DNA of 64,000 bases, from IMG/VR virus record IMGVR_UViG_3300037067_022550. One strand, 5' to 3'. Source of the DNA: a virus. Positions 5,107 to 64,000 of this stretch are shown one piece after another. How positions within the stretch are numbered: the stretch's first letter is position 1; each line of letters starts with the position of its first letter. Position numbers and translations under genes: made by a program. The notes beneath the pieces were generated by a model that did not search any database, was not told the DNA's origin, and was given only the letters and a program-made list of their open reading frames with translations.

Positions 5107-5125
5107 AAATATTTGGTAGAATTCA

Positions 5126-7002: not shown

Positions 7003-7035
7003 TGCAACGGCAACATTTTGAAAACAGAATTGATA

Positions 7036-12332: not shown

Positions 12333-13070
12333 ATGAACTATAAACTATCAGTGTCCATCTTCTCTTTAATTACAGCAATTGCATTATGTTCTTGTTCTCC
12401 AATTGAGGGACCACAAAGGAAAATCTTAACAGAAATGACCACTATCCAATTGCCGCCAGTATCAAACCAAGACATAAATATAGAGTTTGTTTATGATGCT
12501 TCTGGAAGTATGGGGGAAACTGTTAAAGATTCTAAAGGTAAGAGTCAAAAGAAATACATTGTAGCTAATAATGCTCTTTTGTCTGCAGCCACAATTATAC
12601 AGGGATTCTCTATGGCTACAAATAGGAATATTAATTGCGGCATGTGGATGCTTAGGGGAGGAAGTCCTGCCAAAGTTTTTGATCTAGATAAATTTAATAT
12701 TAATAGATTTAATAGTTTCTGCAAAAACTTTGATGAGCCTAGTGGAAATACGCCCTTGGGACTAACAATAGACGGAGCAGCTTGTGATGTTCTTCGTAAA
12801 AGAGTATTTAAAAACTATATAGTTGTTATAAGCGACGGAGAAAGTAATTCTGGAAGAGATCCTTATGAATCTATTGTGGAAAAAACAAACTTTGCCAATA
12901 ATGAAGCAAATTTGAAATTTTTCTTCATAGCTTTTGATGTCAATTCAAGTGTATTTAAATCAATTAAAAAGCTATCCAATGTTGATGTGTTTGAAGCTGC
13001 AGATGAAAAACAACTAACAGAAAGGCTTGGTTTTATTGTAGAAAAGAAAATACTTCTGGAAAATGAATAA
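12333..13070 (+). CDS. von Willebrand factor type A (vWA) domain lipoprotein
   Basis: Signal peptide plus Cys (LITAIALCSCS). MIDAS DASGSMGE and VISDGESN motifs. Confidence 0.7.
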   Translation: MNYKLSVSIFSLITAIALCSCSPIEGPQRKILTEMTTIQLPPVSNQDINIEFVYDASGSMGETVKDSKGKSQKKYIVANNALLSAATIIQGFSMATNRNINCGMWMLRGGSPAKVFDLDKFNINRFNSFCKNFDEPSGNTPLGLTIDGAACDVLRKRVFKNYIVVISDGESNSGRDPYESIVEKTNFANNEANLKFFFIAFDVNSSVFKSIKKLSNVDVFEAADEKQLTERLGFIVEKKILLENE

Positions 13071-13076
13071 TTTGGC

Positions 13077-13104
13077 TTGACAAAATATCTAATTATGTTA
13101 TAAA
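13077..13104 (+). promoter_or_regulatory. sigma70-like promoter (TTGACA-16-TATAAA)
   Basis: TTGACA at 13077-13082, 16-nt spacer, then TATAAA. Upstream of 13155. Confidence 0.4.
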
Positions 13105-13154
13105 CATTACAAATAGAAACAAAAGTAAAGAAAAACAAAAAAGGAGAACAAAAA

Positions 13155-13904
13155 ATGTGGAAAGCACTAAAAAGACTCTTGATCGCTATTGGTATTATGG
13201 CAGAAGATCTAACAAACACAGATGGTATTAACCAAGCAGTAGTTGAACGTGGCATCAGAGACTCTAAGGAAAGAGCAAGTAAAGCGTCTGAAGACAACGG
13301 TAAATTGGCTGGTTCAATTTCTTTGTTGAAAGAACAGTTGAAGAAAGAAGGAAGACAAAAAGAAGAACTGCAAGGCTTGCTGTCCTATGCTGCATCAGTT
13401 AACGATGAAGCTAATGGAGCAAATTATGCAGAACAACTGGCCAATCTTGAAGAAACTATTAAAGATAACCAAGAACAGTATGATAATTTGGAACTTATGT
13501 ATAAACAAAACACCCAAATCATCGCTGAAAGCATTAGACAAATACAAAAGTTCCAAGCAGAATTTAGTCAACTCAAAATTAAAGTCTCTATGAGCAGGTC
13601 CATGGAAGGACTTGCCACTATGATGAAGAGTTCCATAACTGAATTGCAAGGTATGGTGGGCGGAGAAATGAGTGAATCCATGGAGAAATTGAGACAATCT
13701 GCTGCCAATGGAGAAGGGCAAATTAGAGCAACTATGGATCTTGCCAAAGAAATGGGATCTAATATTAGAAATCAACAAGAAGCCAGGAAAGCAAAAGGAG
13801 CTATGCTGTTTAAAGAATACCAAAACAAAATTGGTATTTCTAAAAAACAACCAGAAGTTGCTCAAACAACCCTTCCTGAAAAAGAAAAGATTAAGGTGGC
13901 TTAA
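13155..13904 (+). CDS. PspA/IM30 (Vipp1, ESCRT-III superfamily)-like coiled-coil protein
   Basis: 249 aa, all-helical. N-terminus MWKALKRLLIAIGIMAEDLTNTDGINQAVVERGIRDSKE resembles the PspA N-terminus. RBS AAAGGAGAA. Confidence 0.5.
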   Translation: MWKALKRLLIAIGIMAEDLTNTDGINQAVVERGIRDSKERASKASEDNGKLAGSISLLKEQLKKEGRQKEELQGLLSYAASVNDEANGANYAEQLANLEETIKDNQEQYDNLELMYKQNTQIIAESIRQIQKFQAEFSQLKIKVSMSRSMEGLATMMKSSITELQGMVGGEMSESMEKLRQSAANGEGQIRATMDLAKEMGSNIRNQQEARKAKGAMLFKEYQNKIGISKKQPEVAQTTLPEKEKIKVA

Positions 13905-13906
13905 TT

Positions 13907-14212
13907 ATGAGAAATAAAAAAATTGCAATTACAATAGTATCTTTTTTGGTGGCCGGACTAATATGCCTTGCAGGTTGCTATGACGGCTATTTGCTGACAC
14001 AAAAAGATTCTCTTTCTTCTAATATATTTGTTGTCCCATGTGCAAATGGAGTATATATAGTCAAAACAAAAGACGGCAACATTTGGTATTATCAAGTCAA
14101 TACAGATAATGGAGACGTGTTAAAATATGTTATTTTCGGAGATGTTACCACTAACTCTTTGACAAGACAATGTATCCAAACAAATGTTATTGAATTAGAA
14201 AAATCAAAATAA
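13907..14212 (+). CDS. small lipoprotein
   Basis: Signal peptide with lipobox-like LAGC. 101 aa. Start overlaps the preceding stop. Confidence 0.45.
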   Translation: MRNKKIAITIVSFLVAGLICLAGCYDGYLLTQKDSLSSNIFVVPCANGVYIVKTKDGNIWYYQVNTDNGDVLKYVIFGDVTTNSLTRQCIQTNVIELEKSK

Positions 14213-14322
14213 GGAGGAAAAAATAGACATTTAATTCCAAATATATTAATAAATTAGACCAAAAATTAGAAAAATTAGAAAAAAAAACAAAAAGATAGTA
14301 AACAAGGAAAGAAGGAGAAAAA

Positions 14323-16014
14323 ATGATTACGCTAAAAGGTAAAATTCTGTTGACTGTAGTAGTGCTTGCAATTGCTGGATTTGGAACTTGGAAATGGAGC
14401 GACAAACTGTTTCCAAAAGCTAAACAAGAAGCAACTTCTAATATTAAAGATGTCGTAAATAAGTTGCTTGCTGGAACTAACGCTGTTTTTTTGAAGGAAT
14501 CTTCGTCTATTCCTCCTGTAGTCGGAACCAGCGATTACGACAAAACCAGCAAAAATGGTAAAATTGTAGTTAATTTTCCCATTAATGTCTGGCCTGGTTG
14601 GGCTCCAATTATTGTTGCCAATCAAGGAATGGATGCCAATGATAATAGCGTATTTTTTAAGAAATACGGATTTTATGTTCAACTAAGTATTGTTGATGAT
14701 CCTGTTAAAGCAAGAGATTTGTTTGCAAGCGGACATACACATGTTCTTTGGGGAACGCTAGATATGATGGCCTTGTTTGCCCCTGCTCTTGTTAGAGATT
14801 CAAGAACCATTCCAGTTATAGCTCAACAAATTGACTGGTCTTCTGGTGGAGACGGCATCGTAGCAAGAAATGGAATTAAAAACATAAATGATCTATCTAT
14901 GAAAAACGGCATTAAGAAAAAGGTGGTGCTTTCTCAAAATTCTCCTAGCCATGCCTTTATTATGTCATTGCTGTTGGATGCAGGTATTGATCCTTCACAG
15001 ATAGACTTTAAATGGACTGCAGACGCCCCTTCAGCCGCAAAAATATTTGTACAAGACAATACCATGGATGCATTTGTTGGATGGTCTCCGGACATATATA
15101 CGGTTTCAGAAGGAGTTCCTAATACAAAACTTATAGTTAGTACGGCTAGTGCTAATCATCTGTTGGCTGACGTTTGGGCTGTCAGAAACGACTTTTATAG
15201 AGACCACCCTGATGTGGTTGCCAACCTTGTTAGAGGAATATTTGAAGGCATGGAAATGGTAAGGAAAGATCCCACCAATGCAGCTAGTTTAATGTCAAAG
15301 GCATATAGTCTTCCGGAAGGAGATTGTTTGGCCATGATTGGAAAAGATGGTGGTATTACAAGCGGAGATGCACACCTTACTAATTATCGCGAAAACTTTA
15401 AATTCTTTCTTGAACCCAATAATCCTTCAAGTTTTGATGTTGTATGGAATAGATCTTCTGCTATTTATAGTGGGCTTGGAGCAATTGATACTATAGTAGT
15501 AGCATCTAAAGTTAAAGCTTCTAAGATTATATCTGAAATGTCAGAAGAATACAAAGATTCTACAGATTTGTCTCAAGCAACATTTAAGCCAAATGCTGTT
15601 TTCGGCAAAGCTGAATCAGACGCCAATCAGATTCTAACTAAAGCTGTTATTATTAATTTTGAACCTAACAAATCTGAAATTAATACTAACTATGATACTA
15701 ATATTCCTGTTACTATAGAAGAAATTGGCAAACTGGCAGGATCTTTTGGTAATGCCTACATAGTTATTGAAGGAAATACAGACGCAAGCAGAAAAGGTCT
15801 TATCCCAGCAGATTTGGTTAGACAACTTTCCTATGATAGAGCAGATTCAGTTAAAAAGTATATCATTAGTAAATATAAATTTGATAATGATAAATTCAAG
15901 GTTATAGGCAATGGATGGGAAAATCCTCTTGCAGGTATGACTGACCCAAGCAATACGGAAGCTAATAAGAAAAACCGTAGGGTTGAAGTAAAGGTTTTCT
16001 CTCTAGAACAATAA
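14323..16014 (+). CDS. ABC-type substrate-binding-like domain fused to C-terminal OmpA peptidoglycan-binding domain
   Basis: N-terminal TM/signal anchor. Periplasmic-binding-like body. C-terminal OmpA_C motif NTDASRKG...LSYDRADSVKKYI...NRRVEVKVF. Confidence 0.6.
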   Translation: MITLKGKILLTVVVLAIAGFGTWKWSDKLFPKAKQEATSNIKDVVNKLLAGTNAVFLKESSSIPPVVGTSDYDKTSKNGKIVVNFPINVWPGWAPIIVANQGMDANDNSVFFKKYGFYVQLSIVDDPVKARDLFASGHTHVLWGTLDMMALFAPALVRDSRTIPVIAQQIDWSSGGDGIVARNGIKNINDLSMKNGIKKKVVLSQNSPSHAFIMSLLLDAGIDPSQIDFKWTADAPSAAKIFVQDNTMDAFVGWSPDIYTVSEGVPNTKLIVSTASANHLLADVWAVRNDFYRDHPDVVANLVRGIFEGMEMVRKDPTNAASLMSKAYSLPEGDCLAMIGKDGGITSGDAHLTNYRENFKFFLEPNNPSSFDVVWNRSSAIYSGLGAIDTIVVASKVKASKIISEMSEEYKDSTDLSQATFKPNAVFGKAESDANQILTKAVIINFEPNKSEINTNYDTNIPVTIEEIGKLAGSFGNAYIVIEGNTDASRKGLIPADLVRQLSYDRADSVKKYIISKYKFDNDKFKVIGNGWENPLAGMTDPSNTEANKKNRRVEVKVFSLEQ

Positions 16015-16075
16015 CTAAGTTCAAATAAACAGGTTGGGTAGCCAATAATTAAAATGGCTACCCAACCTCTGCATA

Positions 16076-16945
16076 ATGGTAATATTCATGATTAACTTTG
16101 TTTTATTTTCAATATTTTTTTCTATAGCTGTTGTTATAGCTGCAACAATTATAAATCCAACAATAAGAAAGAAAATATCATATAAAAAATCAGTCTCTCT
16201 AACCGCGTCTTTTATTATTTTAACTTTGCTTGGATGGTGGTTAGTTACAGCAGGAAGCGTAATAGAAGAAAGAATTCTTTCGCCAATTATTCTTCCAAAT
16301 CCAGTTGAAGTTATTCAAGCATTTCCAGATCTTCACTTTAATCAGAACTTAGTGAGAAGTGCCTTTACATCATTTACAAGAGTTGGCATTGGGTTTTTAT
16401 TGGCAACTTTAGTAGCCATAACATTGGGAACATATATGGCTTCTTTTAGTTGCATATCAGATTTTTTTAAGCCACTGGCATTAGTTAGTGCATATGTCCC
16501 AATTATAGTTTTCGTTCCATTAACATTGGCATGGTGGGGAACTAGCGAAACACAAAAAATCGGCTTCCTGTTTATAGCTTGTTTTGTTGCCCTACTTCCT
16601 TTGGTAATTAAAGCGATAAATAATGTTAACTCATCTCTAGTAGATGTTGCATTAACAAAAGGAGCATCTAGTCGGCAAATATTAAGGCATGTTCTATTGC
16701 CAGTATCTATGCCAGAAATATGGGAACATCTAAGGGGAGTATACGGGGTTGGCTGGGGTTGGATTATATTGGCAGAAGTTGTTAATGCCCAAAACGGACT
16801 TGGCTATCTTATATCTGTTTCAGAAAGAAGGGGACATACCAATTCAACATTTGCAGTTATTATAGTAATTGTTTTAATAGCTATTCTTTGTGATAAAATA
16901 TGGGTTTGTATTGGTAAAAAACTTTTCCCTTATAAAAATAGATAA
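16076..16945 (+). CDS. ABC transporter permease (NitT/TauT-like)
   Basis: About 6 TM segments. EAA-like loop TKGASSRQILRHVLLP. Confidence 0.75.
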   Translation: MVIFMINFVLFSIFFSIAVVIAATIINPTIRKKISYKKSVSLTASFIILTLLGWWLVTAGSVIEERILSPIILPNPVEVIQAFPDLHFNQNLVRSAFTSFTRVGIGFLLATLVAITLGTYMASFSCISDFFKPLALVSAYVPIIVFVPLTLAWWGTSETQKIGFLFIACFVALLPLVIKAINNVNSSLVDVALTKGASSRQILRHVLLPVSMPEIWEHLRGVYGVGWGWIILAEVVNAQNGLGYLISVSERRGHTNSTFAVIIVIVLIAILCDKIWVCIGKKLFPYKNR

Positions 16946-16963
16946 TAAGAAATTTTAAAAAAT

Positions 16964-17929
16964 ATGAAAATTAAAAATATAGTTAATTGTTTCTGGACAA
17001 CACCTGATAAAAATGTTAATAAAGAAAATACCCCTGTAATTATAAAAGAGGAAACTTCTCCTGAAAAACAAATAGTAGAGATAAAACAAAAATTACTCTC
17101 TCCTATTCAAAATAGTAAAATAAATAATCTTTTGCCTAAACAAACAAAAACATCTGAACTGGTTGTTTTTGAAAATGTTACTAAAAAATTCGGCAATAAA
17201 GTTGCTATTCAAGACGTGTCTTTTATAGTCCATGATATTCCAAATAAAGGAGAATTAATTACAATAGTTGGACAATCAGGATGTGGTAAATCAACAGTTC
17301 TAAAAATACTGGCAGGACTGGAACCTCACTTCCCACCAACTTCAGGAAAGGTTATAGTTTTCGGAAAGAACTTGGAAAAACCATCAGCAGAAAGAGGACT
17401 TGTTGATCAAAAATATTCTCTTTTACCCAATCTAACAGTTATAGATAATATAGCCTTTGGACTTATGCTTAGAAATATTAATAAAAAAGATCGTAGAGAA
17501 CAAGCAATGGAATGGGTCAAAAAAGTAGATTTGGAAGGTTCAGAACAAAAATATCCTCACGAACTTTCTGGCGGTATGCAGCAAAGAGTCTCTATAGCAT
17601 CAACCCTTATACTTAAACCAAGAATATTGCTAATGGATGAACCTTTTGGAGCCCTAGATCCTAAAATTAGACTTCAAATGCAAGAACTTCTTATTAAATT
17701 GTGGGAAGAACAAGAAACAACTGTTTTTTTTGTCACCCATTCCGTAGAAGAAGCCGTCTACCTTGGAGATAGAATTTATAGAATGTCCCCAAATCCTGGC
17801 AGACTTGTTGAAATTATAGAAACTCCAAGACCAGATAAAATGGCATGGCAAGTTAGAAATGAAAAATGGTTCGTAGAAGCAACCAGAAACTTATTACATA
17901 AATTGGAAGAAAACACAAATGGAAATTAA
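16964..17929 (+). CDS. ABC transporter ATP-binding protein (with about 70-aa N-terminal extension)
   Basis: Walker A GQSGCGKST. Signature LSGGMQQRVSIA. Walker B LLMDEPFGALD. Confidence 0.85.
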   Translation: MKIKNIVNCFWTTPDKNVNKENTPVIIKEETSPEKQIVEIKQKLLSPIQNSKINNLLPKQTKTSELVVFENVTKKFGNKVAIQDVSFIVHDIPNKGELITIVGQSGCGKSTVLKILAGLEPHFPPTSGKVIVFGKNLEKPSAERGLVDQKYSLLPNLTVIDNIAFGLMLRNINKKDRREQAMEWVKKVDLEGSEQKYPHELSGGMQQRVSIASTLILKPRILLMDEPFGALDPKIRLQMQELLIKLWEEQETTVFFVTHSVEEAVYLGDRIYRMSPNPGRLVEIIETPRPDKMAWQVRNEKWFVEATRNLLHKLEENTNGN

Positions 17930-18875
17930 TTTTACTAGAGAATTTATAAAAAGCAAAACCAACATCGTCATGGCTCTGTCTACACTTGGTTTGGGATTTA
18001 TGTGCGGAGAATGGTACACTCTTGTACTAGGTATAATAATATACGGACTGTCAATTTTGTTTGTCCCAGAAATGCCATGGTTCAAAAATAAAATTATAAA
18101 TGAATATCAAGAAATAGAAAAACAAAATAATGAAAAAGAAAAACAGAAACTTATAGAAAAAAGAGACTCACAACTATCAACACTTCAACCCACAAGAAAA
18201 GAGAAATATTATTCTCTTGCAGAAACTTGTTTAAAAATAGAAGAAAACACAGAAAATAGTTCACAAGAATATGAATCTGTTTTTAGAAAACTAGAAGAAC
18301 TGTTGTCAACTTACCTTAAATTATTAATTATAGAACAATCACTTCAATTGTTTGTTGAATCAGAAAAAAAAGAAGATATAGAATCTTGCCTAAAAGATTC
18401 TCAAAAAGAACTATCTGATATAGAAAAAGAAAAATTAAATATACAAAAAGATCCACTGTCATCTAACATACAGTTGGAATCTAAACAAAAATTGCTTGAT
18501 TCAAAACAAGACAAAATAGCTATACTTAATCAAAGAAAAAATAAACTGGAACAAGCAAAAACTAATATAGAAATCGTCTTGTCAGAACTAGATAGACTAG
18601 AACAACAAATTAAATTAATTAGATCTGATTCTATAGCAACAAGAAATACAGATGCTTTAACTAATAAAATTGATGTTAGTATAGAACAAATTAATCAAAC
18701 AAATAAATGGTTGGTGGAAATGCAAGATTTTAAAGATGTGGTAGGCGATGATTGTCAAACCCAATCAAAAAGAATAGGATTTTTAAAATCGCCTTTAGAT
18801 AATACCACATTCAATAACTTAAAAAATAATAAGATTAAAAGGGATAAAATAATATATGAATACAAATCTGCCTAA
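17919..18875 (+). CDS. membrane-anchored coiled-coil protein
   Basis: N-terminal TM helices then long K/E-rich coiled coil. Overlaps the upstream stop. Confidence 0.5.
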   Translation: MEINFTREFIKSKTNIVMALSTLGLGFMCGEWYTLVLGIIIYGLSILFVPEMPWFKNKIINEYQEIEKQNNEKEKQKLIEKRDSQLSTLQPTRKEKYYSLAETCLKIEENTENSSQEYESVFRKLEELLSTYLKLLIIEQSLQLFVESEKKEDIESCLKDSQKELSDIEKEKLNIQKDPLSSNIQLESKQKLLDSKQDKIAILNQRKNKLEQAKTNIEIVLSELDRLEQQIKLIRSDSIATRNTDALTNKIDVSIEQINQTNKWLVEMQDFKDVVGDDCQTQSKRIGFLKSPLDNTTFNNLKNNKIKRDKIIYEYKSA

Positions 18876-20592
18876 ATGGGCTAAAGAATTCGGGCAAAAA
18901 TGGAATAGCAACTCATATTCTACCTTTGTAATACACGGAAATGTGTTTGATCTTTTTCCATATGACGAAAAATCAACATCATTCTTGTCTCTAAAACAAT
19001 TTATATCTAAAAGACTCTTCTTAGATAAAAAATATGTTATGCATTACGATATTGGAGATGGTTTGGTTTTTAGAGATAATGAAGTAAAAAAAGATTTTTT
19101 TAGCTGGCTAGAAGTATATGACCAAGTTGAAAAAACTAACTTCCATATAGACGGAATGCCTAGAGAGTTTTATAAAATAATCCCCATACTTAAAAGATTC
19201 ATAAGCCATGTTGAAGATGACAAAGATCCTAAACATAATAAAAACGGAATTATATTTTTTATAGATTTCCCAGAAAAAATATTTCCTAATTCTGAAAACG
19301 GCTCTTCACTAGAAGATAAAATGTCAATCACATCTATGCTAAAATTGTCCCTTTCTAAAGAAATAAGAGAATCTAAAATTACATTTATAATGCTTTCAGA
19401 ATCTATCCCAGAATTAAACCAAGAAATAGTCAGAAATCCAGCAGTATGTAAAGTTGAAATAGACTTCCCTATAGAAAACGAAAGAAATAATTTTATAGAA
19501 ACTTACCCTGATGAAAACTTTAATAGTATTTGTTCTTTGTCTAAAAAATCTTTGTCCCAAAAAACTTCTGGACTAAATATAACACAAATAAAAAACATAC
19601 TTTTAGAAGCAGAAAATAACCAATTCATAATAGACCATAATTATTTGTCAAATATTAAAAAGAAACTAATAGAAGAATATTGCCAAGGTCTTATAGTATT
19701 TAAAGAACCAAAAGAAAATCTTAACCTAGATTGTATAGCCACACATTCAGCAGCTAAAAAGAAATTAAAAGAAATTGTTTGGTTAATTAAAAACGATAAA
19801 AAAGATGTCATAGAAAAAGGAATCCTAATACCAGGAAGAGTGGGAGTCGGAAAATCATTCCTTATAGATTGCTTCTCATCAGAATGCTGCCTGCCAGTCG
19901 TTGTACTAGGCGACTTTAGATCTAAATGGGTAGGAGATACAGAAAAACAATTGTCTAAAATATTAGCAACTATTAAAGCACTAGGCCCAGTAATAGTAGT
20001 GGTTGACGAAGCAGACGCTGTGTTCGGAAATAGAAGTAGCTCAGGAGATAGCGGAGTCTCTACAAGAGTGTTTGCATCACTAGCAGCTCATATAGGAGAT
20101 TCTTCAATTAGAGGTACAGAATTGTGGATAGCTATGACATCTAGACCAGATCTCTTGTCAATAGATATGAAAAGACAAGGTAGATTCGGATTATGTATAC
20201 CACTTTTCCCTACCCAATCTATAAAAGAAACTATGGATATGTTCAAAATAGTAGCAAAAAATAACAAAATAGTTATCAATGAACAAGTTGAACAATATGT
20301 AACAAAAACATTCTGTAATAGTGAAATAACAGGTAGCGAAATAGAATCTATAGTTATTAGGGCAAAAGAAATGGCAGTATTGGAAAAACACGATGATAAT
20401 ATAACAGTAGAAAATTTTCAACAAACTATAGAATCTTTTATTAATCCCCTAGACCAAAATGTTCTAATGTTACAAGACCTTGCAGCATATCTTTCATGCA
20501 CAGATTCTAGATACCTTCCCCAAAAATATTCTGATCAAAAACTTAGAACAGATTTTATTAGAATATTTAATCAATTAATAAATAATATTTAA
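18856..20592 (+). CDS. AAA+ family ATPase (classical AAA with second region of homology)
   Basis: GRVGVGKSF Walker A. VVVVDEAD Walker B. SRPDLLSIDMKRQGRF second region of homology. About 300-aa N-terminal domain of unknown function. Confidence 0.75.
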   Translation: MNTNLPKWAKEFGQKWNSNSYSTFVIHGNVFDLFPYDEKSTSFLSLKQFISKRLFLDKKYVMHYDIGDGLVFRDNEVKKDFFSWLEVYDQVEKTNFHIDGMPREFYKIIPILKRFISHVEDDKDPKHNKNGIIFFIDFPEKIFPNSENGSSLEDKMSITSMLKLSLSKEIRESKITFIMLSESIPELNQEIVRNPAVCKVEIDFPIENERNNFIETYPDENFNSICSLSKKSLSQKTSGLNITQIKNILLEAENNQFIIDHNYLSNIKKKLIEEYCQGLIVFKEPKENLNLDCIATHSAAKKKLKEIVWLIKNDKKDVIEKGILIPGRVGVGKSFLIDCFSSECCLPVVVLGDFRSKWVGDTEKQLSKILATIKALGPVIVVVDEADAVFGNRSSSGDSGVSTRVFASLAAHIGDSSIRGTELWIAMTSRPDLLSIDMKRQGRFGLCIPLFPTQSIKETMDMFKIVAKNNKIVINEQVEQYVTKTFCNSEITGSEIESIVIRAKEMAVLEKHDDNITVENFQQTIESFINPLDQNVLMLQDLAAYLSCTDSRYLPQKYSDQKLRTDFIRIFNQLINNI

Positions 20593-31388: not shown

Positions 31389-31916
31389 TTATCTTTCAAC
31401 CCTTACAGAGCCGGTCAGCCAACCAACCGTGATTGTTTGATAAACAGCCGTAGAATGGTGGACATCAACTACTCTTATTTCAATATTTTGCTGAACTGAG
31501 CCATTTAGTCCACCTTGAGAATTGAATTCAAGAGGATGGGCAATTTGGCTAACACCATGCAGGTCATCCCATGTGTTGCCACTCTTACCAAGCAAAACAA
31601 TTCCATCTGGCAAACGGTTGCTGGCTATAATGTTGTTTTCTGCCGTGCTATTATCAACGATCAGATAGTAAGAATAGGGCAAGGCAGTGTTTGTGGTTAT
31701 TGTGGCATAGAGAAAACCAACTGGAATCCTCTTCGAGATCGCCCATTGACGAGCCAGCGATAAATTGGCATGAACGCTTGATGTTCCAGATCTTAATGCC
31801 ATGCCCTTGCCCATGCTATGGAAAGAAGGGACAGCAATAACAGTAATAACGCAAACAATGACTATAACAACCAGCAGTTCAATCAATGTAAATGCTTTTT
31901 TCATATTATTATCCAA
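31389..31916 (-). CDS. prepilin-type N-terminal methylation-motif protein (type IV pilin/pseudopilin-like)
   Basis: N-terminus MKKAFTLIELLVVIVIVCVITVIAV matches the class III signal / pilin N-terminal helix. Confidence 0.6.
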   Translation of the reverse strand: MDNNMKKAFTLIELLVVIVIVCVITVIAVPSFHSMGKGMALRSGTSSVHANLSLARQWAISKRIPVGFLYATITTNTALPYSYYLIVDNSTAENNIIASNRLPDGIVLLGKSGNTWDDLHGVSQIAHPLEFNSQGGLNGSVQQNIEIRVVDVHHSTAVYQTITVGWLTGSVRVER

Positions 31917-32118
31917 ATATTTGGAAGGCTACTCTGATTATAATAGCTGTGAAGATAAACATTACCATACTGGACAGAACAAAGGCTGTAGTAATACCAA
32001 GGAGTCGTATTCCTATCTCCTTGGTCTTTACATAATAAATGAACAGTTTTACCCAGCATGTTGCAAAAACAGCATAGGCAATCAGAAAGATAACTGCTAA
32101 TGACATTGTGTTATCCAT
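31909..32118 (-). CDS. small membrane protein (start corrected to internal Met)
   Basis: Family promoter at 32187 lies inside the longest-ORF call 31909..32193. RBS AAAAGGAG precedes the internal ATG (MDNTMSLAVIFL...). Confidence 0.4.
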   Translation of the reverse strand: MDNTMSLAVIFLIAYAVFATCWVKLFIYYVKTKEIGIRLLGITTAFVLSSMVMFIFTAIIIRVAFQIFG

Positions 32119-32156: not shown

Positions 32157-32194
32157 CTGATAAGCAATATAGCAAATTATAAAAATAAGTCAAG
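32157..32194 (-). promoter_or_regulatory. early-promoter family copy
   Basis: aagtcaag at 32187-32194. Gene strand reads TTGACTtatttttataatttgcTATATTgCTTATCAGAAAG. Confidence 0.6.
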
Positions 32195-57689: not shown

Positions 57690-58103
57690 TTATGCCATAG
57701 CCTTGTTCATTTTTTCAAATAAACCAGGAACATGTTCTTTTTTTCCAAGACCACCATTTTTAATGGCTTCATCAATATCTTTTATTTCAAGGTTGAGATT
57801 TTCAGCCCTTTTTTCACTATCTACCCAGTTATCAAGATATTCCTTTGAAGATAGCAAAGCATGAGCAAAAGCCTTTCCTTTCAAAAGGTATTCTTTTTTA
57901 ACTACAAGTCCCTGTCGTAAAATCCAAATAATGACACCAAGTTGTGCCGCCAAAACTTCTAAATCTTTATGCTCATTTTTTTGTGAAAAAGATTTTTTAA
58001 GGGAATTATCTGCTTCCTTTTGCGTCATGTGATGAATGTTCTTAGCCCACAAATTATCCCAACAAGAGTCACTACTGCATGATTCTTTTCCCCAAGCTCC
58101 CAT
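57690..58103 (-). CDS. hypothetical protein
   Basis: 137-aa ORF. Confidence 0.5.
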   Translation of the reverse strand: MGAWGKESCSSDSCWDNLWAKNIHHMTQKEADNSLKKSFSQKNEHKDLEVLAAQLGVIIWILRQGLVVKKEYLLKGKAFAHALLSSKEYLDNWVDSEKRAENLNLEIKDIDEAIKNGGLGKKEHVPGLFEKMNKAMA

Positions 58104-58121
58104 AATACACCTCCTATTTTT

Positions 58122-58454
58122 TTATGTTTCCACGTTTTTTAAAGGAATAGCAACTAGATATTTGGTATTATCATTTGGATACGCAGGTTCGGAATTTCCT
58201 TCAAAATAGATAAGTAAGAATTTTTTAGGAACTTGAGGTACTTGCATAATCCAACTCCAAAAGGGGGACTTGCAAGAATCAGTTTTACGTGCAATAGTTT
58301 TTTCAACTTTTAAAATAGCTATATTGCCGCCGATAGGAGTATGGGCATAACCTATTCCATAGCTGAAACTAACTGTTAAAACTCTGTCTCCAACTTTCAA
58401 ATCTTTAGCCAGCACTTCTTTTATGCAATAAGAATCAGATAGTTGATTATCCAT
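58122..58454 (-). CDS. hypothetical protein
   Basis: 110-aa ORF. Confidence 0.5.
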   Translation of the reverse strand: MDNQLSDSYCIKEVLAKDLKVGDRVLTVSFSYGIGYAHTPIGGNIAILKVEKTIARKTDSCKSPFWSWIMQVPQVPKKFLLIYFEGNSEPAYPNDNTKYLVAIPLKNVET

Positions 58455-58466
58455 CTTTATCTCCTT

Positions 58467-58504
58467 TTTCAGTAAAAAATAACATAAATCAAATTAAAGT
58501 CAAG
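58467..58504 (-). promoter_or_regulatory. early-promoter family copy
   Basis: aagtcaag at 58497-58504. Confidence 0.5.
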
Positions 58505-58968
58505 CAATTTTTTAATGAACAGCAGCAATATTTAGCAAACAATTGTATGACATATTTTAATGCCATATTTTTTTGTAGGGCATTAATAAGCAGATATTTT
58601 CTAAATTGGAATTCAGACATTGTTTTCTTTTCTGAATTACACTTATCACAAGCTACCCTGAAGTTTTTGGGATCATTTCTTTTTTTGGTTATGCTTTTTG
58701 GAATGGCATGATCAATTGTAGCTTGAAGATGTTTTTTCTTGGTTTTTATTTTTAATCCAGTCTTACCGCAATAATCACAAATAAGAGTCCCACTTTTTGT
58801 AAGATGACTTTTAAGATATTTCTTCCTGGCTTTTATCCAAGCAGTTAAACATTCATCTGTTTGAAGATACAATTGTTTATTCAGCATCAACAAACTGGCA
58901 TAGGAGTGCGGATCGGGATCTTCCACAAAGAAAAGATTAGCAGTTCTTTCTCTGATATTTGTTTTCAT
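58489..58968 (-). CDS. HNH endonuclease
   Basis: CDYCGKTG...IDHAIP...N...CDKCNSEKK (HNH with zinc-binding Cys pairs). Confidence 0.7.
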   Translation of the reverse strand: MKTNIRERTANLFFVEDPDPHSYASLLMLNKQLYLQTDECLTAWIKARKKYLKSHLTKSGTLICDYCGKTGLKIKTKKKHLQATIDHAIPKSITKKRNDPKNFRVACDKCNSEKKTMSEFQFRKYLLINALQKNMALKYVIQLFAKYCCCSLKNCLTLI

Positions 58969-58996
58969 ACTTTGTGGGCAAGGGAACCCGATATCT

Positions 58997-59299
58997 TTAA
59001 CGGTTGGGTAATTTATCTAATTCGTCTAAATATTTTGTATATTGTTTATATTCTTTCCAGAAGCGTTCTAACTCTTCTTCCAAAAAATCAAGATTGATTT
59101 TGCCTTGGCGAGCTGCACCACAAGAATATGAAACCTTTAAAATATTATTTTCTTTTCCATCTGCAATATAATATTTATAATGTCCAATGTTAGCTTCTGA
59201 AATATATTCTTGGGTAGCCTTAATTTTAAAAGTAGGATTTCCAAGCTTTTTGTTTTTAAATTGCTTGTAATGATGAATAGTTATTAAGTCATATTTCAT
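58997..59299 (-). CDS. hypothetical protein
   Basis: 100-aa ORF. Confidence 0.5.
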   Translation of the reverse strand: MKYDLITIHHYKQFKNKKLGNPTFKIKATQEYISEANIGHYKYYIADGKENNILKVSYSCGAARQGKINLDFLEEELERFWKEYKQYTKYLDELDKLPNR

Positions 59300-59311
59300 A
59301 GATACTCCTTT

Positions 59312-59587
59312 TTAAACAAAACAAGCCAGGATCTCTCCATCTTCAATCATCCAATTAAGATTTCTCAAATTATGGGCATCTTCTTCTGTAATGCCAGCTT
59401 CAATCAATTCATCAACTCCAACAGAATATATAACATCATGATCAGCACCCTGAATGCCTTTTGTGGGGCAATACTTTCTAATAATTTGTAAACCTAAAAA
59501 AGCGTTATCATCCATTGACATATCTTTAACACTTCCATTGCCACCCATAATTTCTTCAAATACTTTTCTTTCCATTGTTTCCTCCAC
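59312..59587 (-). CDS. hypothetical protein
   Basis: 91-aa ORF. Confidence 0.45.
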   Translation of the reverse strand: MEETMERKVFEEIMGGNGSVKDMSMDDNAFLGLQIIRKYCPTKGIQGADHDVIYSVGVDELIEAGITEEDAHNLRNLNWMIEDGEILACFV

Positions 59588-59596
59588 TAATTGATT

Positions 59597-59634
59597 TGTA
59601 ATATTAATGTATCAGATTTTTTTAAAAGGTCAAG
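59597..59634 (-). promoter_or_regulatory. early-promoter family copy (variant aggtcaag)
   Basis: aggtcaag at 59627-59634. Confidence 0.4.
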
Positions 59635-59643
59635 AAAACTTTT

Positions 59644-59937
59644 TTACCCCCATTGCAATACCTTGCCGCATTCTGAACAACACCAACCGTGGTCACCATC
59701 AGGAGTTTTCCAATAAACCATCTTGTCAACCATTTCGTTTTTCTCATGATTTAGTGAGCAACCTACAACAATTTGTACGGGTTTTGAAAGAGGAATAACT
59801 TCATCAATATATTTTTTGCCAAGAAGAGATGCAAACTGTTGTAATTGTTTTCCTGTTACTTTAATACCTATCATCATATCTTCAGGAATATCTCCGATCT
59901 TGGTTCTGCATGTAATGGGAACTTCAATTGTTTTCAT
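59644..59937 (-). CDS. hypothetical protein with C-terminal CxxC
   Basis: 97 aa. WCCSECGK. Confidence 0.45.
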   Translation of the reverse strand: MKTIEVPITCRTKIGDIPEDMMIGIKVTGKQLQQFASLLGKKYIDEVIPLSKPVQIVVGCSLNHEKNEMVDKMVYWKTPDGDHGWCCSECGKVLQWG

Positions 59938-60001
59938 GGTTGTTTTAATTTTATTTTTGCTAACATGGTATTTATTTCCAACATCATGTTTTTGTCTCTT
60001 T

Positions 60002-60039
60002 CTGATAGCAAATCTAACATATTAAATTTAAATGTCAAT
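60002..60039 (-). promoter_or_regulatory. early-promoter family copy
   Basis: atgtcaat at 60032-60039 with upstream ctttctgatagcaaatctaacatattaaat block. Confidence 0.5.
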
Positions 60040-60041
60040 TA

Positions 60042-60539
60042 CTATTCTATATAATAAAGACAGGGAATCATTTTAATCTTCATTGCTACATAATCATAAA
60101 ACCTACGCCAACCGTCTTGAATGATTGTAATGTCATTAGGATGATTTTTTTCATCCCACGCATTAAAGTCCAAGATAACTGGCCAAATTTCTTCACGATG
60201 TTGCCTGATTATTCTATTGTCATAAATATTTCTAAGACTACCGAATAAATCTAAGAATTCACTAGTAGGTATATTAACATAACCAAATTTTTCGTCTCCA
60301 TAACGCCGGGTATAAAAACCAATATAATCTTTAATAGCCAAAGAAACTAATTCTAAACAGTTGTTCTTATTATAATTTTTATAAGAAACAGTCTCGACTT
60401 TATCAGATATATTCCAAGCTTCCCCATCAACAGACATATAATAAGCCATTGCATATTTTGCTTCTCTGGGTAACTGACGAAACTTTAATACCTTGCCATT
60501 ATGTTTCTTAATTAAAGCAATCAATTGTTTGTTTTTCAT
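60042..60539 (-). CDS. hypothetical protein
   Basis: 165-aa ORF. Confidence 0.5.
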   Translation of the reverse strand: MKNKQLIALIKKHNGKVLKFRQLPREAKYAMAYYMSVDGEAWNISDKVETVSYKNYNKNNCLELVSLAIKDYIGFYTRRYGDEKFGYVNIPTSEFLDLFGSLRNIYDNRIIRQHREEIWPVILDFNAWDEKNHPNDITIIQDGWRRFYDYVAMKIKMIPCLYYIE

Positions 60540-60555
60540 GGTTGTTTTTTCCTTT

Positions 60556-60593
60556 CATAAGAATAATCTAACATATTAAATAACAAAGTCAAG
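60556..60593 (-). promoter_or_regulatory. early-promoter family copy
   Basis: aagtcaag at 60586-60593 with upstream cctttcataagaataatctaacatattaaat block. Confidence 0.55.
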
Positions 60594-60831
60594 TACTATT
60601 TTTATTACTTAAGTTTTATAAAGCTTAAGTTCTGGACCAACTTAAGTTTTGTTATTTATCCCAATATTTGCACTCGTCTTTAATTTTATTAATATTTTGA
60701 TTGGCAATAAAGACGAGTGCTTTCTTTTTATTTTGCTTAAGTTTTCTAATTTTTTGACTACTTGGTTTAAAACAAAAAAAACCGATAAGGAAAAAATCCC
60801 TACCAGTTTTTAAAAACAGTACCGTGCTTGT

Positions 60832-60869
60832 TACGAATATTTATAAAATATTTTTGCTAAAATGTCAAG
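60832..60869 (-). promoter_or_regulatory. early-promoter family copy
   Basis: atgtcaag at 60862-60869. Confidence 0.5.
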
Positions 60870-60876
60870 AATAAAA

Positions 60877-61209
60877 TTATCTTACTTTTGTAACCCAATT
60901 AGATCCAACCAAGAAAACATATTCTTTATAGCTAATTATAGTAGCTTCTTTAACTATTACAATATTATAATCACCATGATGTTCTTCTTTTATCTCAAAA
61001 ACATTAGAATTCATTTGAAGACAATCTTTGTTTTCCGAAATATTTCCTGTAGGATTTTCAGCAATTAAATTATTATTTTTATTGTAATTTATAGGATGAT
61101 TAGATGAAGAAAGTTTATTTGAAAAAAATAATTCTATTAATAATGCTCCCACAAGGCCAATAATTCCAAGGGCAATCATACATTCAATTATTGTAAATCC
61201 CTTTTTCAT
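60877..61209 (-). CDS. prepilin-type N-terminal methylation-motif protein
   Basis: MKKGFTIIECMIALGIIGLVGALLI. Confidence 0.6.
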   Translation of the reverse strand: MKKGFTIIECMIALGIIGLVGALLIELFFSNKLSSSNHPINYNKNNNLIAENPTGNISENKDCLQMNSNVFEIKEEHHGDYNIVIVKEATIISYKEYVFLVGSNWVTKVR

Positions 61210-61221
61210 AATTTTTCACTT

Positions 61222-61542
61222 TTATTGTATTTTAACTGCCCATCTATATCCGTCTACTATTATATTGGTTTTCCCAGATTGTAAATTTATTACTGTTATA
61301 ATCTGATAGGTTCTAAAACTATTTTCATATTCCTCAAATTCTATTTTAAAATTTTTATTTTCTATTTTAAAATTATTATCAACGGGTTCTTGATTTTCAA
61401 TAGGATTTTCAACCATCGCATTTTTTTGTTGTTCATTATATCTTTTGTGAGCTTTATTAAAAGAAGGTATAATTATGGCAGCTAACAAAATAATTATTAT
61501 TAGAACAATTACAATTTCAACTACTGTAAATCCTTTATTCAT
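61222..61542 (-). CDS. prepilin-type N-terminal methylation-motif protein
   Basis: MNKGFTVVEIVIVLIIIILLAAIIIP. Confidence 0.6.
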   Translation of the reverse strand: MNKGFTVVEIVIVLIIIILLAAIIIPSFNKAHKRYNEQQKNAMVENPIENQEPVDNNFKIENKNFKIEFEEYENSFRTYQIITVINLQSGKTNIIVDGYRWAVKIQ

Positions 61543-61549
61543 ATTTCTC

Positions 61550-61846
61550 CTATTTGATAAAGCTTTTTAAATGACATTCGTTTGTACAATCACCCTTGTG
61601 ACAAAGGGTGTATATAAGATAACCATAAGCAGTTCTACTATTACTTTCAATATATTCACACCCATTTATAACTACAATTTGATAAGGAGATGTTGGTTTA
61701 TTAGTTTTAATAGGAATTGGATTTTCTAAGCAAGTATTATCATTTTTAAGAGCTTTAATAAGTATTGGCCTTAATATTGCTGCTAAAGTAATAATCACAA
61801 AAACAACAACTAAAATCTCTACCAATGTAAAACCATTTTTTTTCAT
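61550..61846 (-). CDS. prepilin-type N-terminal methylation-motif protein
   Basis: MKKNGFTLVEILVVVFVIITLAAIL. Confidence 0.6.
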   Translation of the reverse strand: MKKNGFTLVEILVVVFVIITLAAILRPILIKALKNDNTCLENPIPIKTNKPTSPYQIVVINGCEYIESNSRTAYGYLIYTLCHKGDCTNECHLKSFIK

Positions 61847-62004
61847 AATTTACTCCTATTTATATTGACAAACAATTATTAACTTTATTTACGAGAATAA
61901 TAGCAAAATCATTGGTTGTTTTTCTATTATTAGGGAAACTAAAATAAATTAATGAAATTGCAGCAACAATTATGCCAATGACTGCTAGTGCAATTGTACA
62001 CTTA

Positions 62005-62241
62005 TCACTTTTTTTCATTACGTTTCTCTTTTTTAATTCTGTCATGTTCTCTGCAATGATCTCCGCAACAATAACCCCCATTATGTTTTGTTTTAATGTC
62101 ACAACCTGGCAACAAACATTTTCTCAATGGTTTTTGAACTACATAAGGTGTCATTGCTTTTATCAAGTTAGGGTCAGAAAAAAGACTTCCCAAACCCATG
62201 ATAGAAGCTGCCAACAGTAAGTCGTTATAATTTTTTTTCAT
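62005..62241 (-). CDS. Cys/His-rich small protein
   Basis: 78 aa. LPGCDIKTKHNGGYCCGDHCREH. The overlapping call 61860..62102 probably starts at its internal Met (about 61860..62018, small TM peptide). Confidence 0.4.
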   Translation of the reverse strand: MKKNYNDLLLAASIMGLGSLFSDPNLIKAMTPYVVQKPLRKCLLPGCDIKTKHNGGYCCGDHCREHDRIKKEKRNEKK

Positions 62242-62249
62242 AAATAAAA

Positions 62250-62327
62250 TGGTGGGAGATGAGGGATTTGAACCCCCGACCTTGGATTTATAAGACCCCT
62301 GCTCGTCACCAGCTGAGCTAATCTCCC
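62250..62327 (-). tRNA. tRNA with anticodon UAU (Ile-like, reads AUA), CCA encoded
   Basis: Acceptor GGGAGAU/AUCUCCC. D arm GCUC...GAGC. Anticodon loop CUUAUAA. Variable loop AGGUC. T arm GGGGG-UUCAAAU-CCCUC. A-CCA. One G.A mismatch at 27:43. Confidence 0.6.
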
Positions 62328-62396
62328 GTTTGGAAGGTCTGATTCAATGGGAACCCATAGGGGCATACTTAGCCCATTGCCAAGATCATAATTTTA

Positions 62397-62618
62397 TCAT
62401 TTATACATTACAACATAATTGCCAAATTCTTCTTCAAATACTTTTAAAACGTTATCATAATTACCACTAGTCATTCTTTTTTGAATGGTATTAAAATCTT
62501 TTCCGGTTTGTTTGGAAAGAGTACGAGCTACACCAATTAAATAAAAAGCATTACCTTGCAGCCCAGTAAGATCTATTTCTAAACGTTTTTCTTTCTTTTC
62601 AGATTTTGGCACGATCAT
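62397..62618 (-). CDS. hypothetical protein
   Basis: 73-aa ORF. Confidence 0.45.
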   Translation of the reverse strand: MIVPKSEKKEKRLEIDLTGLQGNAFYLIGVARTLSKQTGKDFNTIQKRMTSGNYDNVLKVFEEEFGNYVVMYK

Positions 62619-62866
62619 TTGATGTTATCCTTTTTGATCCCACTTCTTTCCAAGGCAAATAAAAGTTTTTCTTCTACATCTTCATTGGCTGGGTGGTTAA
62701 TGTCAATATTAAATTTTACACAAATCTTATCTTCAAGTTTGTCAAATCTTTTTTGATTTATAACCTTAATCTTTTTCTTTTTCAATTTCAAGATTTCTTT
62801 TGCAATTAAACAATCAAGTGCTAAAAAATCTATGGGGATAAAAGAGTATTGTTCCATTTCATTCAT
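62615..62866 (-). CDS. hypothetical protein
   Basis: 83-aa ORF. ATGA overlap with the downstream gene. Confidence 0.45.
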   Translation of the reverse strand: MNEMEQYSFIPIDFLALDCLIAKEILKLKKKKIKVINQKRFDKLEDKICVKFNIDINHPANEDVEEKLLFALERSGIKKDNIK

Positions 62867-62879
62867 ATGCCCCCATTAA

Positions 62880-63167
62880 TTAGGGTATTAGAGTAACTGA
62901 AGCCCCATCATACCATTCAGCAAGACAACCCTTGATATATTCACAAAACTCATTAGGCTCTCCTCCCCATTGATCACTTTCACATGAGATTGAAACTTTA
63001 TCAGAATAAGAGCGTAATCCTGCTCCAATTTCTCCTGGAAAATATATATCAAAAGATAGTTGATGTTTTTTTAATTGATCTATTTTAAATTTAAGACCAG
63101 CATTCTCAATCTGCAAACTTTCCATTGCTTTTCTCAAATCTTTTTTGGTTGCCCCATTAGCACTCAT
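62880..63167 (-). CDS. hypothetical protein
   Basis: 95-aa ORF. Confidence 0.45.
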   Translation of the reverse strand: MSANGATKKDLRKAMESLQIENAGLKFKIDQLKKHQLSFDIYFPGEIGAGLRSYSDKVSISCESDQWGGEPNEFCEYIKGCLAEWYDGASVTLIP

Positions 63168-63169
63168 GA

Positions 63170-63439
63170 TTACTCCAGAATATTAAATTCTTCTATAAAA
63201 TCTGCGTTAGATCTATAAACAGACTCACGATTGGTTAAGATTTTCCAAACATAATCTTCTGGAAGATCATCCAAATATTTCTGTCGAAAAATTTCTCTTG
63301 CTTCTGGACTATCCTTGAGAATTTTAATTACTTTAAATTTGGTCAATTCACTACTTGATAGAGGAGGAAAATCAACTCCATACCATTTTGGGCGACAAAA
63401 AACTTCATTCATACTATTATTCCTTTTCTTTAAATTCAA
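63170..63439 (-). CDS. hypothetical protein
   Basis: 89-aa ORF. Confidence 0.45.
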   Translation of the reverse strand: MNLKKRNNSMNEVFCRPKWYGVDFPPLSSSELTKFKVIKILKDSPEAREIFRQKYLDDLPEDYVWKILTNRESVYRSNADFIEEFNILE

Positions 63440-63466
63440 TGTAGCATAATTTAAAAATAAGTCAAT
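63429..63466 (-). promoter_or_regulatory. early-promoter family copy (variant)
   Basis: aagtcaat at 63459-63466. Confidence 0.45.
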
Positions 63467-63473
63467 AACAAAA

Positions 63474-63773
63474 TTAATCCTTATGCTTTTTTCTTTTGGG
63501 AATCCATGCCGGTGGTTCTTTTTTAAATGTCAAACCAAGTTCAATATTCCTCAGTGCATTTACGATATTTAATTGAATATGGCTCTCTATTAAAATTTTA
63601 GGGTTGTTCGAGCCAGTCAATTCTCCAAATGTTGCTGAATTAAATTTACAACCCTTATATGCTGCAAAATAATCGGTGAGTATTCTTGCAACTTTTTCGG
63701 CTTGGGGAGTATGGTATTCTTTGCAGATTTCCTTGACAATAAATTCCAAATGTGCTTTACAAAATTTTTTCAT
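63474..63773 (-). CDS. hypothetical protein
   Basis: 99-aa ORF. Confidence 0.45.
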   Translation of the reverse strand: MKKFCKAHLEFIVKEICKEYHTPQAEKVARILTDYFAAYKGCKFNSATFGELTGSNNPKILIESHIQLNIVNALRNIELGLTFKKEPPAWIPKRKKHKD

Positions 63774-63940
63774 TTAACATCTTTTAAGGGGCATTCACTA
63801 GGAATAGCAATATAATCATCATCATAACCGAGGTTCATGCCAAGTCTTGAACATTCATAATAACCCTGGCCAGTAACAGAATGACAAGCTGGACATTTTT
63901 GACAATTACCATCAATTATTTCTTCATATAATTTTTTCAT
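63774..63940 (-). CDS. small zinc-ribbon protein (55 aa, not in ORF track)
   Basis: MKKLYEEIIDGNCQKCPACHSVTGQGYYECSRLG... The stop of the upstream partial ORF overlaps its ATG (ATGA). Confidence 0.35.
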
Positions 63941-64000
63941 ACCTTCATAGCATCAATTCGTTTTTGAAGCTCATATTTGACAATTTGTTTTATTCCTTCA

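Follow-up and report, generated by a model that had tools for sequence, protein, structure and literature searches.

Why would a virus carry genes resembling those of bacterial type IV pilins, and what could their products do in an infected cell? The question is raised by a 64,000-nucleotide stretch of viral DNA (IMG/VR record IMGVR_UViG_3300037067_022550; the whole stretch analyzed is hereafter called the window), which encodes four small proteins with a prepilin-like N-terminus, all on the minus strand. Three of them, here called mini-pilins 1, 2 and 3, lie in tandem at 60877..61209, 61222..61542 and 61550..61846, and the fourth, a FimU/GspH-class minor (pseudo)pilin referred to as the FimU-like protein, is encoded at 31389..31904. 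A preliminary description made from the sequence alone had listed the same four open reading frames (ORFs), and all are indeed present. The exact pilin-class proteins are also found on a public contig of 263,965 bp, and we infer the window to belong to a jumbo phage of ~264 kb and to represent an accessory or early part of its genome; no virion gene lies within it. This phage is probably virulent. Our analysis suggests that the answer may lie in the masking or replacement of a phage receptor.

The class III signal proposed in the preliminary description holds for all four proteins, on the basis of profile scores, motif scanning and family alignment, and they are very probably prepilin-type, pilin-class proteins. 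Mini-pilin 1 (110 aa) has the leader MKKG followed by mature FTIIE, mini-pilin 2 (106 aa) MNKG and FTVVE, mini-pilin 3 (98 aa) MKKNG and FTLVE, and the FimU-like protein (171 aa) MKKA and FTLIE, and in each of them Phe+1 and Glu+5 are in register. An apolar run of 20-26 residues extends past the cut site in each, in agreement with the 20 or more hydrophobic residues noted initially. Position 22 is the helix-kink position and is typical of type IV pilins. Proline occupies it in three of the four proteins; mini-pilin 1 carries Glu22, together with Gly14, and its orthologue on a related contig (L007) has Pro22. The signature thus reaches the helix-kink position, which is more than a hydrophobic N-terminus alone would display. 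A six-frame regular-expression scan of the window recovered exactly these four prepilin-motif sites, the mean of 200 shuffles being 0.055.

Profile hidden Markov models gave a similar picture. With a curated cutoff of 21.2 bits, the Pfam N_methyl model PF07963 scored mini-pilin 1 at 24.5, mini-pilin 2 at 15.6, mini-pilin 3 at 22.8 and the FimU-like protein at 29.0 bits. With a cutoff of 16.3 bits, the respective TIGR02532 scores were 24.7, 13.7, 15.1 and 28.7, so that two of the four passed (mini-pilin 1 and the FimU-like protein), mini-pilins 2 and 3 lying just under the cutoff. The N_methyl check suggested at the outset therefore came out in favor of prepilins, three of the four proteins passing PF07963. 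In addition, mini-pilin 2 matches the N-terminal parts of ComGC (E 1.7e-8) and GspG (E 2.2e-7), and the pilin N-terminus of the set is also matched by six PHROG families, of which phrog_3433 is annotated as 'pilin'.

Behind this common N-terminus, the four genes differ in kind: one encodes a minor pilin of GspH/FimU fold that occurs in several unrelated phage types, and the other three are lineage-specific mini-pilin duplicates. Relative to the mean of the window (0.31), the G+C content is higher in the FimU-like gene (0.42) and lower in the trio (0.24-0.27). Concerning the former, public gene calls use the ATG at 31904, giving 171 aa, and an alternative TTG at 31916 would give a 175-aa form. 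The AlphaFold model of the 171-aa protein, built from a 16-sequence alignment (predicted local distance difference test, pLDDT, 81.6), consists of a 52-residue N-terminal helix followed by beta-sheets. When it was compared with the PDB using Foldseek, ranks 1-5 were all Pseudomonas aeruginosa FimU chains (4ipu/4ipv, probability 1.0), four at E 2e-4 to 3e-4 and the fifth at 1.2e-3, the next PDB match being at E 0.13. Template modeling scores to the FimU chains, normalized to the target, were 0.66-0.71, and sequence identity to FimU was 12-14%. The protein as modeled thus has a FimU-like/GspH fold. Comparison with minor pilin structures, which had been proposed as a check, accordingly succeeded for this protein and not for mini-pilin 2, the model of which has no significant neighbor in the PDB.

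The family-level profiles are less decisive. The best NCBIfam match of the FimU-like protein is TIGR02596 (Verru_Chthon cassette protein D; 40.0 bits, E 4.2e-10, over the N-terminal 111 residues), which falls short of the cutoff of 70, and the GspH model TIGR01708 gave 33 bits for a cutoff of 80. Since the FimU fold is matched but the cutoffs of PF12019, TIGR01708 and TIGR02596 are not reached, we have filed the protein as a GspH/FimU-fold minor pilin belonging to a new, largely phage-borne subfamily, of which a database search recovered 25 members. Compared with bacterial GspH/FimU/FimT proteins (PF12019; PDB 4ipu), the predicted fold and the N-terminal signature agree, whereas the phage gene lies away from any pilin operon and residue -1 is Ala instead of Gly.

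The nearest bacterial homologues of the FimU-like protein come mostly from metagenome-assembled genomes (MAGs) of Verrucomicrobiota, Planctomycetota, Armatimonadota and Elusimicrobiota, the best relatives being from Verrucomicrobiota at 30% identity. In contrast to the phage gene itself, the closest homologues belong to pilin operons of G-H-I-J-K-like gene order, where they occupy the H slot. In one Verrucomicrobia MAG (L018), three GspG-like genes are followed by the homologue and then by PilV/cassette B-, cassette C- and cassette A-like genes, the cassette assignments being based on weak N-terminal similarity. In another (L017), a GspG-like gene, the homologue and a PilV/cassette B-like gene precede a masked stretch, and the PilV-like gene is the only confirmed neighbor after the homologue. 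The bacterial homologues thus lie among B-, C- and A-like genes as in the Verru_Chthon cassette, while these partner genes are absent from the phage.

The family is also found repeatedly in phage contigs, which are of at least three unrelated kinds. In L006 the gene lies within a structural module together with a capsid gene and an SU10-type adaptor, in L013 and L014 it adjoins terminase, portal, Mu-F and HK97 capsid genes, and L015 and L054 provide further phage contexts. The phages that carry it range in G+C content from 33 to 49% and have unrelated virion modules, indicating that the gene spread among, or was independently captured by, different phages from overlapping sample sets. The G+C content of the gene in the window, 0.42, is close to the 0.47-0.49 of other phages with the family and suggests horizontal acquisition. 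A diverged syntenic relative (L012; ~34% protein identity) covers the region 28.4-35.3 kb of the window, the FimU-like gene included. This relative is a 9.4-kb contig (JBINOC010000092.1) binned in the bacterial MAG GCA_043956575.1; it is probably a phage contig carried into the bin, the taxonomy of which might hint at the host.

A search of IMG/VR for the N-terminus of the FimU-like family gave 35 loci with a matching protein, the longest contig being 572 kb, and a prepilin-type ORF was confirmed in each, so that prepilin-type genes are not rare in uncultured phages. A scan of IMG/VR with the single 175-aa protein yielded no confirmed relative, and tblastn against INPHARED (50,697 phage records) gave no match to either the 175-aa or the 171-aa form, the latter even at E up to 5. 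The preliminary description considered pilin genes unexpected in the early region of a phage. This view is outdated, given the PHROG matches, the 35 IMG/VR loci and a 2026 paper on phage mimics of FimU and PilA (Sztanko et al., Cell Rep 2026; PMC12952977). As a separate observation, a single prepilin-type protein of more than 213 aa, beginning with MKN(K/T)KAFTLIELLVVIAIIAILAGLLLPSLS..., is encoded on 17 distinct viral contigs of 4-79 kb (L059-L073, L081 and L082; IMG/VR contigs from samples numbered 33000200xx-33000214xx), and it looks like another widespread phage-borne pilin-like family.

Judging from their sequences, the trio consists of tandem paralogues of a previously unnamed mini-pilin family with a length of about 95-112 aa. 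Mini-pilins 1 and 2 are 30% identical over their full length, and an ENP motif is common to all three. The C-terminal part contains GSNWVTKVR in mini-pilin 1 and GYRWAVKIQ in mini-pilin 2, and forms a Cys-rich domain with five Cys in mini-pilin 3. After processing, the proteins would have 93-106 residues. Word-indexed searches found the trio only in close relatives of the window phage, where it is syntenic and 60-78% identical. A profile search of 1.8 billion cluster representatives returned 17 proteins at E <=1e-10, and ~10 proteins, some at weaker E, align over essentially the whole length (95-112 aa). The resulting architecture comprises the pilin helix, L-x-ENP, EE(R/K)HGxY and GSNWAVK(I/L)R. 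Across 12 aligned sequences, Gly-1, the Glu at +5/+6 and two residues of ENP (Glu and Pro) never change, the Asn of ENP is almost constant, and residue +1 varies (F, S or T). A fixed Gly-1 and Glu combined with a variable +1 is the pattern expected of substrates of the prepilin peptidase PilD, and it is what would be seen if peptidase cleavage and Glu-dependent assembly were under selection.

Orthologues of mini-pilin 2 were found at 74% (P0027) and 71% (P0028) identity by BLASTP, and those of mini-pilin 3, 60% identical, are P0032 and L007 9700-9993; more distant family members of mini-pilin 1 are P0048, P0049, P0050, P0147 and P0057. Mini-pilin 3 additionally matches phrog_3433 'pilin' at E 3.8e-5. 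The ratios of nonsynonymous to synonymous substitution rates (dN/dS) relative to the L007 orthologues were 0.49, 0.67 and 0.43 for mini-pilins 1, 2 and 3, compared with 0.31 for the downstream gene and 0.10 for a neighboring Cys-rich gene, and the reading frames are kept. The trio thus appears constrained but fast-evolving, which fits interaction genes. All mini-pilin contexts recovered belong to phage-like contigs of the jumbo-phage clade of the window. Three distant mini-pilins with fetched contexts also lie on phage-like contigs, a single mini-pilin is present in each of L089-L092, and L093 shares other genes with the window. A single mini-pilin beside the Cys-rich gene in distant relatives would represent the ancestral state, with triplication in the lineage of the window.

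In the AlphaFold model of mini-pilin 2 (pLDDT 71.5), a 34-residue helix (residues 7-40) leads, via a linker of low confidence in the region of ENP, to a beta unit of five strands. Its top PDB match, not significant, was a chain of an integrative model of the XcpGHIJK pseudopilus (E 0.12), followed by PUR-repeat matches on the beta unit; a GspI-like identity is conceivable. The mini-pilins are thus, by these comparisons, a new family in which the pilin N-terminus is the only recognizable part. Separately, L076 (IMG/VR UViG 3300029286_002355, 186 kb), a jumbo-phage contig unrelated to the window, carries at 6001-7145 a tandem array of four mini prepilin-like genes, three of them encoding 126, 92 and ~77 aa and the fourth, of 83 aa, being degenerate and lacking the Glu. 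The array is preceded by a 288-aa ORF (outer-membrane-protein-like) and followed on the other strand by a 396-aa ORF (TnpB-like), both judged by sequence only.

How could such proteins serve the phage? The explanation with the best support, to which we give roughly an even chance, is that they enter the type IV pilus (T4P) or pseudopilus of the host and mask or alter a phage receptor, leading to superinfection exclusion. The phage pilins would insert in the inner membrane via their N-terminal helix, and the host prepilin peptidase (PilD/GspO) would cleave after the Gly or Ala at -1. Subsequently, the host T4P or a machine resembling the type II secretion system (T2SS) would incorporate the phage subunits, which would replace or join host subunits. 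The pilus, above all its minor-pilin tip complex, would become altered or masked, and phages with the pilus as receptor would no longer adsorb to the infected cell.

A role as decoys or masks acting on the T4P or T2SS had already been put forward in the preliminary description, and it is now backed by the precedent of P-FimU, although the function itself is assigned by analogy. P-FimU is built in at the T4P tip, where twitching is kept and tip-binding phages are blocked, and its gene sits within the tail gene cluster of F10-like P. aeruginosa prophages (Sztanko et al., Cell Rep 2026; PMC12952977). According to the same study, PilA-like proteins, in part truncated, are encoded by virulent phages, for which early superinfection exclusion was argued to be useful as well; its authors found no P-FimU homologues outside F10-like Pseudomonas prophages (PMC12952977).

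Both P-FimU and the FimU-like protein combine a phage-encoded FimU/GspH fold (predicted in our case) with a prepilin N-terminus, and the gene in L006 lies within a virion structural module much as that of P-FimU lies within a tail gene cluster. The two families are also diverse and evolve fast, and their presumed action, the replacement of a subunit at the host pilus tip, would be alike. They differ in that no sequence relationship is detectable (tblastn against INPHARED, where the presence of F10 and JBD68 was not verified) and in host lineage, the hosts here being uncultured. They also differ in distribution: P-FimU was reported only from F10-like Pseudomonas prophages, whereas carriers of the FimU-like family comprise several phage types unrelated to one another, among them a jumbo phage that is probably virulent. 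Regarding the mini-pilins, the closest parallel is offered by the PilA-like and truncated PilA-like phage proteins and phrog_3433, which are likewise small and consist mainly of the pilin N-terminal helix; the PilA-like proteins, too, have been proposed to enter or block the pilus. In contrast to these, the mini-pilins possess a conserved C-terminal unit of 50-60 residues (ENP...HGxY...NWAVKIR) that has no relatives outside the phage clade, and they are not recognizably derived from any host major pilin.

A number of observations weigh against receptor masking. Mini-pilin 2 is under the PF07963 cutoff (15.6 versus 21.2 bits), its orthologues P0027 and P0028 carry G(F/S)VSVVE with the Glu moved to +6, one of them without Phe+1, and its modest-confidence model gave no significant Foldseek match in the PDB. 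The FimU-like protein scores below the cutoff of Pfam GspH PF12019 (16.9 versus 21 bits, E 0.009, residues 47-166), and its model had no Foldseek match at E <=0.001 among the BFVD viral structures. Neither P-FimU nor any INPHARED phage shows sequence similarity to the FimU-like protein, and the parallel with P-FimU is convergent at best. A host T4P or T2SS and a host prepilin peptidase are assumed to be present. No peptidase A24 gene was detected among the window ORFs scanned, and hence the enzyme is taken to be that of the host. Finally, no receptor-binding protein was seen in the 64-kb part of the phage that was viewed.

The FimU-like gene is directly preceded by a gene for a small membrane protein of 69 aa (31909..32118, minus strand), with which it apparently forms one transcription unit. 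Small membrane proteins of 42-61 aa, with no evident mutual sequence similarity, also precede the FimU-like genes of L006, L015 and L013. A lysis-cassette or spanin reading of this pairing was rejected, as there is no coiled coil, lipobox or nearby endolysin and the second protein has the FimU fold. The unit is headed by a putative sigma-70-like promoter with an extended -10 (TTGACT-N16-TGCTATATT; 32166..32193, minus strand), recognized by its match to the consensus. The motif TTGAC(T/A)-N16-TG(Y)TA(N)ATT has 13 minus-strand matches versus one plus-strand match. The minus-strand copies span 27579-63465, mostly 20-45 nt upstream of a start codon, and include those at 63465-63438, 60592-60565, 60038-60011, 55890-55863, 50884-50857, 48885-48858, 32193-32166, 28584-28557 and 27606-27579. 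The preliminary description held that the pilin genes are expressed from early-type promoters. A match of this kind does head the FimU-like unit; the nearest full match to the trio lies 1.6 kb upstream (63465-63438), with weaker matches at 62425-62385. Early timing is plausible for host-type promoters of this kind.

Upstream of the mini-pilin locus and close to it lies a gene for a Cys-rich protein of 78 aa (62005..62241, minus strand; C-terminal CLLPGCDIKTKHNGGYCCGDHC), which has a hydrophobic N-terminus and a CxxxC...CCxxHC cluster and is 86% identical to its L007 orthologue. A tblastx match to this gene (62-72% identity) stands directly upstream of the mini-pilin in L089-L092; in L093-L095 a match in this position was not confirmed. 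The protein, which has no family assignment, may be a functional partner of the mini-pilins. A scan of IMG/VR with it gave no confirmed relative, and the phage clade of the window does not otherwise seem to be represented there. The gene between the trio and the Cys-rich one encodes a membrane protein of 52 aa (MKKSDKCTIALAVIGIIVAAISLIYF...; 61860..62018, minus strand) and has no counterpart at the L007 position; going by position and composition only, one might guess it to be a fourth mini-pilin copy that has degenerated and lacks the G-F...E motif. A terminator-like hairpin with a T-run (60777..60811, minus strand) is located 66 nt downstream of the last mini-pilin gene; it is the only such site in 60000-64000, shuffles expect 1.6, and the signal is weak on its own. 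Together with the promoter at 63465-63438, it suggests that a transcription unit may run from ~63.4 kb through a tRNA-Ile gene and the Cys-rich, 52-aa and three mini-pilin genes.

As regards the phage itself, the window has a G+C content of ~31% and two tRNA genes. Most of its ORFs are small, lack annotation and form long runs, several have matches in PHROG families only, and homing endonucleases of the HNH and GIY-YIG types are encoded as well. An RNA ligase of phage type and a phage metallopeptidase were found on related contigs. In a blastn search of positions 58000-64000 against INPHARED, only a tRNA-like stretch of 76 nt was matched. A bacterial origin of the window was considered and dropped, as the ORFs scanned gave no core housekeeping matches (only NrdD/NrdG and accessory-type genes), and the small unannotated ORFs, homing endonucleases, PHROG-only ORFs and phage genes on related contigs also speak against it. 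The anaerobic ribonucleotide reductase NrdD is split in two minus-strand ORFs, 8178-9179 and 9409-10929, comprising an ATP-cone N-terminal part and a C-terminal part ~230 nt apart; an intron, a frameshift or the remnant of a homing element could account for the split. Nearby, at 7036-7731, is an NrdG-type gene resembling those of radical-SAM activases. A host-like accessory block on the plus strand (4372-6520 and 12333-20592) encodes an SLT lytic transglycosylase, a hybrid histidine kinase with receiver domain, a VWA protein, an AAA ATPase and an ABC transporter with an NMT1-type binding protein fused to an OmpA domain. Given this OmpA fusion and the presence of MipA in L007, the host is probably an uncultured diderm bacterium. 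The pilin-family genome scan points loosely to Verrucomicrobiota and other phyla of, or neighboring, the Planctomycetota-Verrucomicrobiota-Chlamydiota (PVC) group. The G+C content of the bacterial genomes with the pilin family is 0.41-0.69, mostly 0.45-0.65, far from the 0.31 of the phage.

Would the phage pilins need to leave a working pilus behind? They could instead be assembly poisons which, once processed, stall or cap the host machine and thereby stop piliation, twitching, competence or type II secretion, a possibility that we regard as unlikely. The very small size and non-canonical head of the mini-pilins would suit it, the Glu that is out of register in some orthologues could make them chain terminators, and a virulent jumbo phage has no need to keep the host pilus working. 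The option was raised for 60-residue PilA fragments of Pseudomonas phages in the P-FimU study, in which FimU over-expression was also described to disrupt pilus assembly (Sztanko et al., PMC12952977). A poison, on the other hand, would sit uneasily with the complete minor-pilin fold kept by the FimU-like protein and with the strict conservation of Gly-1 and Glu, which suggests productive assembly interactions.

That many proteins bear prepilin N-termini in PVC-type and related hosts raises a different, and in our view quite unlikely, alternative, namely that the motif is a borrowed export or anchor signal. It would serve processing and periplasmic or surface display, and the C-terminal domains would act elsewhere, for example in envelope remodeling or lysis control. 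The recovered loci, both bacterial and viral and mainly from Verrucomicrobiota/Planctomycetota plus Armatimonadota/Elusimicrobiota, do show many C-terminal domains behind one N-terminus, those of the mini-pilins have no known relatives, and small membrane proteins regularly precede the pilin genes. The 171-aa protein nevertheless has the FimU/GspH fold and homologues in the H slot, and the conserved Pro22 and Glu5 matter for filament packing and not for export.

The clade-wide conservation of a mini-pilin beside the conserved Cys-rich gene could also mean that the phage specifies a structure of its own. In the broader form of this idea, a private pilin set of the phage clade (mini-pilin, Cys-rich partner and H-type minor pilin) would re-programme the host filament motor into a phage-specified cap, plug or fiber, and independent jumbo phages such as L076 would have evolved the same strategy; we consider this decidedly unlikely. 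It is very unlikely, in turn, that the H-type minor pilin and the mini-pilins re-tool the host motor for a phage-specific fiber or plug as a filament in its own right. The presence of four pilin-class genes in one genome and the four-gene tandem array of the unrelated L076 would be in line with such a filament; however, none of the assembly ATPase, platform protein, secretin and prepilin peptidase was seen in the window, the two pilin loci are 29 kb apart and distant relatives carry one mini-pilin only. That the proteins are not pilins at all but ordinary signal-anchor proteins or signal peptidase I substrates with a chance motif is extremely improbable: mini-pilins 2 and 3 do miss one or both curated cutoffs and AT-rich genomes encode many Ile/Leu/Val-rich N-termini, but there are four sites where 0.055 would be expected by chance, Gly-1 and Glu are invariant in a 12-member family, Pro22 is in register and the fourth protein has the FimU fold.

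Returning to receptor masking, the replacement of a receptor component by a phage pilus subunit was demonstrated only in 2026 and in one group of Pseudomonas prophages, and a literature search on pilins or prepilins of jumbo or huge phages, phage-encoded pseudopilins and prepilins of Verrucomicrobia phages found nothing relevant. Among phages of uncultured hosts, at least three unrelated kinds, one of them a jumbo phage, have FimU-class proteins of independent descent, which suggests that a general strategy is involved. The mini-pilins, in which a pilin N-terminus is joined to a novel small head domain, are unstudied candidate modulators of pili. Furthermore, such genes are markers of a type IV filament system in the host of the phage, and they point to pili as a contested receptor in the source communities. 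The main value of the finding is that pilus-subunit mimicry by phages would extend widely beyond Pseudomonas.

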